From the sequence record MW822007.1: a DNA stretch of 64,000 nt. The stretch is one strand, 5' to 3'. Source of the DNA: Escherichia phage BF15. Position numbers and translations under genes: made by a program. Of this stretch, positions 25,720 through 31,070 are shown piece after piece. The notes below the pieces were generated by a model that was not told where the DNA came from, did no database searches, and saw nothing but the letters and a program-made list of their open reading frames with translations. The first letter of the stretch is position 1; every line of letters starts with the position of its first letter.

Positions 25720-26130
25720 TCATTTTTTCTTGTGTTGAATATTCCAAGGCGGGTTAAACAGTTTAATGAATAGTGGCTCCTCTAAGTCAATCGTTGCGAT
25801 TGTCATTGTACCTAACTCATTTGTCATAGAAAGATTAAAACACTGGCGGGCGTAAAATTCAACTTTGCTTCCTTCCTTTAGCGCAGTATGAATTAATGCA
25901 GATTTAGTAGAATCAGACGTTTTGTCTTTACGGTTAATAGCAGTTCTATAATAGTTTATTCTTTTACGTAAATTTTTAGTTTTTCCAATATAAACAAGCT
26001 CATCATTTATAGCAATAGCATAAATTACGTTATACTTATTTGGAATAGATAATTGTTTTATACTTCCGTTGTCGTCTAATTCTAGCTCAGTATATTTAAT
26101 AAATGAATATTCTGTTGCAATTTCTTTCAT
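25720..26130 (-). CDS. denA: Endonuclease II (GIY-YIG-like)
   Basis: 136 aa from internal Met; VIY...VYIGKT motif; adjacent to nrdB; hairpin in the track-predicted N-terminal extension supports the internal start. Confidence 0.8.
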
Positions 26131-26157
26131 AATAAAATGGGCCTTGCGGCCCACTCC

Positions 26158-27336
26158 TTAAAAATATTTTTTAAAACTCATCATAACTTTATCATCAACA
26201 TCATTATCAATCTGTGCTACAAGGTAAGATGATAGTTCTACTTCTTGCGGCGCGGATTGAACATTATCAGAATTAAGGTATTCACGAATCCAAGGATATG
26301 GATGTTTAACCGGAGCATCGGTAATTGGGCATGGAAGACCGCACTGTTTCATACGAGATACAGTTAAGTAATCAATAAAGCTCCACATGCTATTTGTATT
26401 TAATCCAGGAACATCACCATCTTTAAATAAATGAACTGCCCAATCTTTTTCTTGGCGGTTAACTTCCATGAAAATATCAACTGCTTCTTGTTCACACTCT
26501 TGGGCAATTTTAACCCATTCATCACCATCAGTGCCAAGCTGAAGTTGACGAATAATATATTGGGTGCCTTTAAGGTGAAGCTGCTCATCACGAGCAATGA
26601 ACTTCATAATCTTGGCATTACCTTCCATGATTTCCATGTTCTTATGGAAGTTAAAGGTACATGCGAAAGATACATAAAAACGAATAGCTTCCAATGCGTT
26701 GATTACATGAAGGCAAAGATAAAGAGATTTCATTAGTGCTCGTTTAGCTTCGGCTTCTTGTTTAATAGCTCGATTTAAACGAAAATCAGCATCAGGAGAT
26801 TCTTTAGCTAGTTCTACAAATTCTTTAGCATTTTCCCATTCACGGGTCTTCTTAAGAACATCATCGTAATAGCGACCAATGGACTCAGCGCGTTTCATAA
26901 TATCTTCATCTAATACAATCTCATCAAATACCTTTGATGGGTCAGTATAAAGATTTCGCATGATATGAGTATATGAACGACTGTGAATAGTTTCACTAAA
27001 AGTCCATGTAGCAACCCATGTATCAAGGCTTGGGTCTGAAATTAATGACATAAGTACTGCAGACGGTGCACGACCCTGAATGCTATCTAGAAGTGATTGA
27101 TACTTCAGGTTATTAGTAAAAATATCTTGCTGATACTGAGGAAGCTTGTTAAATTGTGCAGCATCCATCATCAAGTTTACTTCTTCAGGGCGCCAGAAAA
27201 ATGATAATTGCTTTTCGGTTAAATCTTCAAAAACTTTATGGCGTTGAATATCATAACGCGCAATACCAAGACCTGAACCGAAGAACATAGGTTCTTTTAA
27301 AACATCAACTGGATTTGTATTAAAAACTGTGCTCAT
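26158..27336 (-). CDS. nrdB: Ribonucleotide reductase small subunit, uninterrupted
   Basis: 392 aa contiguous ORF; no intron or intron-encoded ORF. Confidence 0.95.
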   Translation of the reverse strand: MSTVFNTNPVDVLKEPMFFGSGLGIARYDIQRHKVFEDLTEKQLSFFWRPEEVNLMMDAAQFNKLPQYQQDIFTNNLKYQSLLDSIQGRAPSAVLMSLISDPSLDTWVATWTFSETIHSRSYTHIMRNLYTDPSKVFDEIVLDEDIMKRAESIGRYYDDVLKKTREWENAKEFVELAKESPDADFRLNRAIKQEAEAKRALMKSLYLCLHVINALEAIRFYVSFACTFNFHKNMEIMEGNAKIMKFIARDEQLHLKGTQYIIRQLQLGTDGDEWVKIAQECEQEAVDIFMEVNRQEKDWAVHLFKDGDVPGLNTNSMWSFIDYLTVSRMKQCGLPCPITDAPVKHPYPWIREYLNSDNVQSAPQEVELSSYLVAQIDNDVDDKVMMSFKKYF

Positions 27337-27387
27337 AAATTTTCCGCTTAGTTAATAGATAGTGACTCGTCCGTGAGTCAAATTATA

Positions 27388-29652: not shown

Positions 29653-29969
29653 AAGTCCTCAACTTGAAAATCGTCTTTAAACAATCGGTTAACTATATGA
29701 GCTATTATATCACCATGACACGGCTTTGGTTTACATGTGCATCCTAGCCTCATTCCACGTAAAGGCTCTAAATGTGCTTTAGTTATTTCTCCGGATTTAA
29801 TTCGACGTATAAAATCTTTTTTGAATAATTCAATGGCAGCCTCCCGGCTGCCAGCATCTTTACCGACGTAATTTCCCCAAAATGTACCACGGTGAATATT
29901 AACATCAAAGTCGGATTTATATTTATTCACTACCCGGCATAGACGGCCCACGCTGGAATAATTCGTCAT
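29643..29969 (-). CDS. Hypothetical protein (between td and nrdA)
   Basis: 108-aa track ORF. Confidence 0.5.
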
Positions 29970-30186
29970 ATTGTTTTTCCGTTAAAACAGTAATATCATA
30001 ATAACAATCAGAAGAAGTTTTAACTGTGGAAATTTTATTATCAAAATACTCACGAGTCATTTTATGAGTATAATATTTTTTGCCATAAATGATAATAGGC
30101 TGTTCTGGCCCTGGAACTTCTAACTCGCTTGGGTTAGGAAGTGTAAAAAGAACTACACCAGAAGTATCTTTAAATCGTAAAATCAT
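29923..30186 (-). CDS. Hypothetical protein (between td and nrdA)
   Basis: 87-aa track ORF; overlaps the next ORF, start uncertain. Confidence 0.45.
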
Positions 30187-30209
30187 ATATCCTCACAATT
30201 AATAATTAA

Positions 30210-31070
30210 TTACACCGCCATTTTTCCTTTAATAGGAGGGTGTGATTCGTAACCTTTAAGAACGAAATCTTTAGGCCTGAGTTTAAGAACATATTCCAAT
30301 TGTTCTTTAGTAGAAAGATGGCGGAATTTATAAGGCAATCCGCCTATTACCAGTTCACAAAGCTCTTTAGGTTCACGACGTAAAATTTCTTTACATTGTT
30401 CCACGTGATTCATATAGATATGAGTATTACCGCCAGAAAATATCAAATCTCCAGGAATAAGATTACACATCTTAGCTACAATATGAACTAATGCAGCATA
30501 TGATGCAATATTAAATGGAAGACCGAGGAAAACATCTACCGAACGTTGATACCACTGCAAATCCAAATAGCCATTACGCACATTAAACTGATAGAACATA
30601 TGACAAGGCGGTAATGCCATATATTTAAGTTCAGCTGGATTCCACGCAGAAACAATTTGACGCCTATCATTTGGTAGTTTTTTAATACGATCAACAACTT
30701 CTACAATTTGGTCTACACCGCCAAAATCACGCCACTGTTTTCCATAAATTGGACCAAGTTCACCACTATGATATCCTAAATCTTTTGCTTGATTTTCGTA
30801 ATTTTCATCCCAGACTGTTTTGCCTTGAATTAATGAATCATGTTGAATTAATCGCAAATCATTGACATTTGTGCTTCCTGATAAAAACCATATTAGCTCA
30901 GCGATGCAAGCTTTCCAAGCGAGCTTCTTAGTCGTTACTGCAGGAAAACCTTTAGTTAAATCCCAGCGTAATTTAGTACCGAACAAAGCAATTGTTCCTG
31001 TGCCTGTTCGGTCATCGGTTTCATAGCCGTTTTCAAAAATGTCTTTAATTAAATCTTGGTATTGTTTCAT
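30210..31070 (-). CDS. td: Thymidylate synthase, uninterrupted
   Basis: 286 aa contiguous; PPCHMFYQF active-site region; no intron. Confidence 0.95.
   Translation of the reverse strand: MKQYQDLIKDIFENGYETDDRTGTGTIALFGTKLRWDLTKGFPAVTTKKLAWKACIAELIWFLSGSTNVNDLRLIQHDSLIQGKTVWDENYENQAKDLGYHSGELGPIYGKQWRDFGGVDQIVEVVDRIKKLPNDRRQIVSAWNPAELKYMALPPCHMFYQFNVRNGYLDLQWYQRSVDVFLGLPFNIASYAALVHIVAKMCNLIPGDLIFSGGNTHIYMNHVEQCKEILRREPKELCELVIGGLPYKFRHLSTKEQLEYVLKLRPKDFVLKGYESHPPIKGKMAV

Follow-up and report, generated by a model that had tools for sequence, protein, structure and literature searches.

Empty intron sites in a T2-type nucleotide-metabolism cluster of Escherichia phage BF15

The 64,000-nucleotide (nt) stretch of Escherichia phage BF15 DNA analyzed here (sequence record MW822007.1; "the window") comes from a T4-like phage of the genus Tequatrovirus: BLAST aligns it colinearly with T4 ~113,980-168,903 and then 1-8,212, and its DNA is ~95-97% identical to that of many sequenced phages. 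It includes a block of nucleotide-metabolism genes in the order frd, a small open reading frame (ORF), td, nrdA.2, nrdA.1, nrdA, nrdB and denA, with the interval from td to denA on the minus strand. The block lacks the T4 td intron, the T4 nrdB intron and mobE, and therefore has intact target sites on offer. Very probably it represents the usual T2-type form of the T-even nucleotide-metabolism cluster, uninvaded and with its target sites intact for homing elements. The arrangement is already known as the layout of phage T2, where it is well characterised, and is not a surprise.

td and nrdB are uninterrupted and their intron sites are empty

Comparison with T4 by BLAST, and of the window, T2 and T4 together by three-way MAFFT alignment, shows four clean absences from the window: the td intron, the nrdB intron, nrdB.1 with mobE, and segG. 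A preliminary description of this DNA had reported td and nrdB as single uninterrupted ORFs of 286 and 392 amino acids (aa), had put the spacer between nrdA and nrdB at about 50 nt, and had listed the two introns and mobE of T4 as missing. All of this is borne out: both ORFs are colinear with the spliced T4 proteins, the spacer measures 51 nt, and the T4 elements correspond to clean gaps of 1017, 598 and ~645 nt. The same description held that the target sites are empty and intact and that alignment to the T4 exon junctions would locate them, as it did (Table 1).

Td matches PF00303 (E=1.6e-95) in one continuous frame, with residues 2-286 on profile positions 1-266 of 266. It is identical to spliced T4 Td at 276 of 286 aa, with 10 differences and no indel. 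In both BLAST and MAFFT the 1017-nt gap relative to T4 falls at 30521/30522 and equals the T4 td intron with I-TevI; the insertion site, between 30522 and 30521 (td nt 549/550), is uninterrupted in the window. I-TevI has the cleavage motif 5'-CNNNG-3', and the window keeps a fitting CAACG at 30548-30544 (-27..-23). The enzyme cuts at -23/-25 from the insertion site (PMC2988022). In the intron-carrying td of phage JE01 (positions -24..-19), Gln-Arg-Ser of the I-TevI cleavage site is encoded by CAA AGA AGT and not CAA CGC TCA, a synonymous change that still fits CNNNG.

NrdB matches the E. coli R2 structure chains (E=4e-126, residues 3-388) and PF00268 (E=1.9e-36), and its FFWRPEE (radical-transfer Trp) and SETIHSRSY (metal ligand, Tyr) segments are identical to those of R2. 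Its alignment with T2 NrdB and spliced T4 NrdB spans the full length and is colinear except for one variable block. The 598-nt gap relative to T4, again placed by both BLAST and MAFFT, is at 26660/26661 and equals the T4 nrdB intron with its truncated I-TevIII. Around this empty site, -2 and -5 are the only positions at which the window departs from T4. The full-length I-TevIII of the RB3 type cuts at -14/-16 (PMC1865063); the predicted cut positions in the window are ~26675-26677, where the sequence is identical to that of T4.

The target of the free-standing endonuclease MobE lies further upstream in nrdB. MobE-dependent nicks have been mapped to T2 nrdB nt 122-126, at codon 42 (AAG), which is AAG in all phages lacking mobE (PMC2790892). 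In the window nrdB nt 97-128 are identical to T2, codon 42 AAG included, and the FFWRPEE-coding block has one synonymous change. The first 190 nt of T4 nrdB are heavily recoded around the MobE site, whereas the window is of the T2 type throughout them.

The nrdA-nrdB spacer contains no ORF and is identical to the T2 spacer at 49 of 51 positions. The T4-specific gaps here total ~645 nt in the three-way MAFFT alignment and represent nrdB.1 and mobE of T4. No MobE- or Hef-type free-standing endonuclease gene was found between nrdA and nrdB, and tblastn with MobE matches only the mobA locus described below. A TATAAT sits at 27387-27382, directly after the nrdA stop. We rejected a 6-bp hairpin in the spacer (27380-27363) as a terminator: it does not exceed shuffle expectation and its T tract is poor. 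According to PMC2790892, there is no terminator at this place in phages that lack mobE. A scan for consensus promoters and terminators across 25500-32200 returned no more sites than shuffled sequence.

The preliminary description had named group I intron core elements or a split reading frame in td or nrdB as what would refute it; neither was found. A search with the Rfam model Intron_gpI in E-value mode at E<=1 gave no match in window positions 24500-33000, while the same mode recovered both introns from T4 133000-148000 as a positive control (td intron 40.3 bits, nrdB intron 35.7 bits). A scan of the whole window at the gathering threshold (50 bits) likewise gave no match but is uninformative: we discarded it because that mode also misses both T4 introns. 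A default-threshold "no Rfam hit" is hence unusable for excluding ORF-containing group I introns in phages.

Table 1 Features of the window that bear on the nucleotide-metabolism block and on homing elements.
Feature	Position	Strand	Basis
denA (endonuclease II)	25720-26154	-	99.3% identical to T4 DenA; Pfam GIY-YIG E=6e-6
nrdB, class Ia ribonucleotide reductase small subunit, 392 aa, uninterrupted	26158-27336	-	ORF; PF00268
Empty nrdB intron site (between 26661 and 26660, after T of codon 226)	26660-26677	-	Alignment to T4 exon junction
nrdB variable block, ~aa 157-208	26712-26870	-	Three alleles, one each in window, T2 and T4, that barely align
T2-type MobE target; nick nt 122-126 = 27215-27211; FFWRPEE-coding block 27201-27181	27181-27215	-	T2 alignment and nick mapping of PMC2790892
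nrdA-nrdB spacer, 51 nt	27337-27387	-	Sequence
nrdA, ribonucleotide reductase large subunit, 754 aa, uninterrupted	27388-29652	-	ORF; one BLAST piece versus T4 nrdA, 95.2% nt identity
nrdA.1 (DUF4326), 108 aa	29643-29969	-	PF14216 E=5.5e-22; same position in T4 and T2
nrdA.2 (DUF5496), 87 aa	29923-30186	-	PF17600 E=1.4e-62; same position in T4 and T2
td, thymidylate synthase, 286 aa, uninterrupted	30210-31070	-	ORF; PF00303
Empty I-TevI homing site (-27..+12)	30510-30548	-	Alignment to T4 exon junction
mobA (39/60 locus), intact HNH homing endonuclease, 272 aa	58691-59509	-	ORF; phrog_655 E=2.5e-57

The empty state is the common one

Database comparison placed the block among its relatives. 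At least 80% of the 7.1-kb block is covered in 497 phage records, and most top matches are colinear with it in a single piece. To score occupancy we used probes of 140-181 nt centred on each junction, whose match is split by an inserted element; the resulting counts are approximate, as duplicate records and some other genera are included. The td site is uninterrupted in 294 of the 470 records with any match and the nrdB site in 596 of 703, and the short nrdA-nrdB junction is present in 373 of 507. Conversely, the full td intron of T4 occurs in 197 records, its nrdB intron in 118, and T4-type mobE with nrdB.1 in 20, with further records having mobE alone, without nrdB.1. Each empty state is thus that of the majority of sequenced relatives, and T4 is the outlier. 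On account of its 15 homing endonucleases, Wilson & Edgell have called T4 "unique among T-even phage" (PMC2790892). The preliminary description had presented a homing-element-poor cluster as a peculiarity of this phage, a view that does not survive these counts or the exact match to the T2 layout. No record is at least 99% identical to the window over 25 kb; the best reaches 96.8%.

That real introns were collapsed or removed in assembly can hardly be credited. Both frames are exact and colinear with the spliced T4 proteins, the same contiguous junctions occur in hundreds of independent genomes, and we found no point in favor of such an artefact.

A third state of td was seen in three phages, MLP2 (OK148441, ~78671-78990), ESh30 (ON528740) and N2 (ON645936), in which the gene is interrupted by only ~320 nt. 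This insert corresponds to the T4 td intron at its two ends but has no I-TevI ORF; it looks like an ORF-less td intron.

Predicted behavior in mixed infection

In the window phage td and nrdB would be translated directly, without RNA splicing, and nrdB would probably depend on signals located in the last part of nrdA and in the spacer of 51 nt, as the published work on this region suggests (PMC2790892). In a mixed infection with a carrier of the elements, I-TevI would be expected to cut td 23/25 nt upstream of the insertion site, at CAACG; MobE to nick the non-coding strand of nrdB at nt 122-126; and a full-length I-TevIII of the RB3 type to cut nrdB at -14/-16. With the donor genome as repair template, the element would then be copied across along with donor sequence on its flanks; this is how localised marker exclusion works.

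The preliminary description had expected I-TevIII to cleave the nrdB site in a co-infection with T4. This part has to be dropped: T4 I-TevIII carries an inactivating deletion and is defunct, and the T4 nrdB intron is inherited only via a MobE-dependent nick ~550 nt upstream, not at the insertion site (PMC2790892). With T4 as the partner, the window phage would acquire the nrdB intron only as a passenger of MobE-initiated repair, at that distance from the nick. The co-infection that was proposed as a check is already published for the same architecture, as T2 x T4 (Wilson & Edgell 2009, PMC2790892).

The importance of the block beyond correct annotation is small, as homing, trans-homing by MobE and marker exclusion of T2 have been worked out on this arrangement. 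The phage would be a recipient at td and nrdB, as are T2 and most Tequatrovirus genomes, and a donor at the locus between genes 39 and 60 (see below). These roles are of use for forecasting marker exclusion, be it in a mixed infection or in a phage cocktail.

Sequence differences at the target sites

Several observations weigh against so simple an account of open target sites. In the I-TevI target, which on the two sides of the insertion site reads CAACGCTCAGTAGATGTTTTCTTGGGT and CTACCGTTTAAT in T4 and CAACGTTCGGTAGATGTTTTCCTCGGT and CTTCCATTTAAT in the window, 6 of 39 positions differ between the two (-22, -19, -6, -4, +3, +6), all synonymously, and 4 of 39 differ between the window and T2 (-22, -19, -7, -4). 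The differences from T4 are denser in the target than in the rest of td, with 6 in 39 nt versus 50 in the other 822 (Fisher p=0.035). In nrdB, nt 129 and 132 are synonymous G->A changes relative to T2 that lie 3-6 nt from the MobE nick. The stretch of nt 114-131 is polymorphic and has been proposed as the discriminating part of the MobE site (PMC2790892); nt 129 falls within it, so sensitivity to MobE may be reduced. Finally, a search by eye for a middle promoter in the spacer, or for a MotA box upstream of its TATAAT, found no convincing match, and the position of an nrdB middle promoter would be the one taken over from PMC2790892.

These differences invite the reading that the empty sites are immune: their I-TevI, MobE and I-TevIII targets, recoded by synonymous changes, would withstand cleavage in part or in full, and the empty sites would reflect escape and not lack of exposure. 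The local excess of synonymous changes in td fits it, and T2 td shows the same excess (Fisher p=0.004), as do the two nrdB positions unlike T2 beside the MobE nick and the -2 and -5 differences from T4 at the nrdB insertion site. We nevertheless consider escape quite improbable, because the equally diverged td site of T2, which differs from T4 at six positions (-22, -7, -6, -4, +3, +6), is efficiently invaded: in T2 x T4 crosses mobE, I-TevIII and I-TevI are inherited at 2.0-2.1 times input (PMC2790892, Table 2), and deletion of the mobE HNH lowers the inheritance of mobE and I-TevIII to 1.5-1.6 (same table). The CNNNG motif is intact in the window, and I-TevI is sequence-tolerant (PMC2988022, citing Bryk 1993).

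The local excess at the I-TevI site is also modest, and part of it has a simpler explanation. The bases at -6 and -4 track the presence of the intron: they are the T4 bases (TTGGGT before the splice site) in 3/3 intron carriers examined, JE01, IME340 and G10400, and other, varying bases in 3/3 intron-less td alleles examined, those of the window, T2 and phage 132. T and G at -6 and -4 are what pairing with the P1 exon guide of a group I intron would demand. Differences thus cluster at the td site in part because these two positions follow the presence of the intron, and resistance is not needed to account for them.

Natural introns within the same allele family are a further argument against immunity. 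JE01, IME340 and G10400 have a backbone of the T2/window type, with the frd-td ORF and the short nrdA-nrdB spacer, but carry a 1016-nt td intron with I-TevI. Where td of the window and td of T4 differ, JE01 and G10400 are for the most part T2- or window-like in both exons. The NrdB variable block of JE01 and G10400 is closely related to that of the window, and that of IME340 is identical to it. In G10400 nrdB, too, is interrupted, by a 1090-nt intron that contains a full-length I-TevIII ORF; mobE is missing, and this nrdB combines a near-identical copy of the window's variable block with a T4-type flank from -45 to -1. To judge from these genomes, the allele family of the window is open to natural invasion. 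We infer, on reasonable and well-founded grounds, that I-TevI would cleave the td allele of the window.

Lack of invasion versus secondary loss

An uninvaded state is not the only history that would leave empty sites. Ancestral introns, mobE or both could have been precisely removed, by recombination with an intron-less relative or by loss of the reverse-splicing or cDNA type, leaving the sites "cured". Presence and absence of the elements are indeed highly mosaic among near relatives at 95-97% identity, and in the intron-less nrdB of JE01 the flank is of the T4 type at -45..-30, such as an earlier conversion tract would leave. In the window, however, no conversion footprint is visible, because non-T4 bases adjoin both insertion sites (td -6, -4, +3, +6; nrdB -2, -5) and nrdB starts with T2-type sequence over its first 190 nt. 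We regard secondary loss as unlikely, and prefer the uninvaded T2-type state. For older events the two histories would be inseparable from sequence, and the predicted present-day behavior would be the same.

mobA is intact and is the only homing endonuclease gene detected in the window

The preliminary description had also placed mobA between genes 39 and 60, correctly: an intact HNH ORF of 272 aa is found there. In tblastn this locus shows 57% identity to the N-terminus of MobE, 92% to T4 "mobA" and 98% to T4 gp60.1. In the T4 reference nine insertions of 1-2 nt break the mobA frame, which is annotated as a 37-aa "mobA" plus gp60.1. T4 mobA is a pseudogene, and relatives keep an active MobA of 269-279 aa (bioRxiv 10.1101/2022.08.31.505936). 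As described in the same work, the MobA element consists of an HNH ORF that splits the gene of the large topoisomerase subunit, with a 50-nt bypass in the downstream part. The window contains both, the 272-aa HNH ORF and the gene-60 bypass segment, which with its flanks (58510-58590) is identical to T4 at 81 of 81 positions. At this locus the roles in a mixed infection would be reversed: the window phage would act as the donor, with intact mobA and the bypass cassette.

There are no other homing endonuclease genes in the window as judged by tblastn with SegD, SegE, SegF, SegG, I-TevI, I-TevIII and MobE, which found only 58691-59509. The window thus has one such gene versus five in the equivalent T4 segment, two of these dead. 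The segments of the window that do not align to T4 contain a pair of alt paralogues, each of full length, and non-T4 versions of gp37 and gp38, with no endonucleases among them. We also rejected denA, at whose end (25720) the interval of the preliminary description begins, as a homing endonuclease gene: its GIY-YIG protein is EndoII.

The alt (ADP-ribosyltransferase) paralogues are arranged in tandem on the minus strand, at 9112-11169 (685 aa) and 11173-13269 (698 aa); T4 has one alt and, left over from a duplication, the short alt.-1 and alt.-2. Where T4 has segG (~620 nt), gene 32 (33743-34651) and gene 59 (34751-35404) of the window are separated by only 99 nt (34652-34750).

Variable block of NrdB and neighboring ORFs

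Outside its variable block NrdB is 95-100% conserved. Within the block, the T4 allele is 4 aa shorter, and 18 records share the allele of the window at >=99% identity while 136 carry it at 90-95%, RB3 being among the records. The block aligns to a gapped region around residues 165-190 of E. coli R2, which we take to be a surface beta-hairpin region. Its variability may stem from relaxed constraint, from recombination, or from a link to the targets of Hef or other endonucleases.

Three small ORFs on the minus strand distinguish this part of the window from T4. The first, at 31116-31475, encodes 115 aa from an ATG at 31463 or 119 aa from an upstream GTG. It fills the 413-nt gap between frd and td; T4 has no such ORF (417-nt gap in T4), and its frd and td overlap. 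The ORF is kept in T2 (RB32ORF229c, one aa different) and in phage 132, and belongs to phrog_1928, of unknown function. It was considered as a degraded endonuclease and rejected, as it has no Pfam match, falls in phrog_1928 and shows no likeness to T4 Seg or Mob proteins. The second, at 32319-32654, is a 111-aa DUF7247 ORF (PF23905 E=1.5e-43; phrog_3566) between an RB32ORF231c-like ORF (32065-32310) and frd.1, a position where T4 and T2 lack it. The third, a 100-aa ORF at 22809-23111 (phrog_2364, unknown function), lies between pseT and pseT.1; it is absent from T4, and T2 has an ORF, RB32ORF217c, annotated at that position.

Comparison with T4, T2 and related phages

T4 (NC_000866, 137517-145690) shares the core genes of the block, which are 95-97% identical outside the insertion sites. 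What sets it apart from the window is a td intron with I-TevI, an nrdB intron whose I-TevIII bears a deletion, nrdB.1 and mobE, segG, and a mobA pseudogene.

The best matches to the block are those of phage 132 (MZ417521, Tequatrovirus ecomime340 group) and KIT06, which align with it at 96.7-96.8% identity over 7101 nt in one piece. Both have the sites empty as in the window, and phage 132 also has the window's NrdB variable block. IME340, which is assigned to the same species as phage 132, carries the td intron.

T2 (MH751506.1, 133353-139698) is identical to the window in gene order and lengths, with an nrdB of 1179 nt, a spacer of 51 nt and a td of 861 nt. It too has the RB32ORF229c-like ORF between td and frd and is without the td intron, the nrdB intron and mobE. 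The two blocks are 95.1% identical at the nt level overall, with a different allele of the NrdB variable block, and T2 is without the extra DUF7247 ORF that the window has between frd and frd.1. They differ as well at the locus between genes 39 and 60, where the window has the mobA element and T2, lacking mobA, was used as the recipient when mobility was tested (bioRxiv 10.1101/2022.08.31.505936). [quoted passage not shown]

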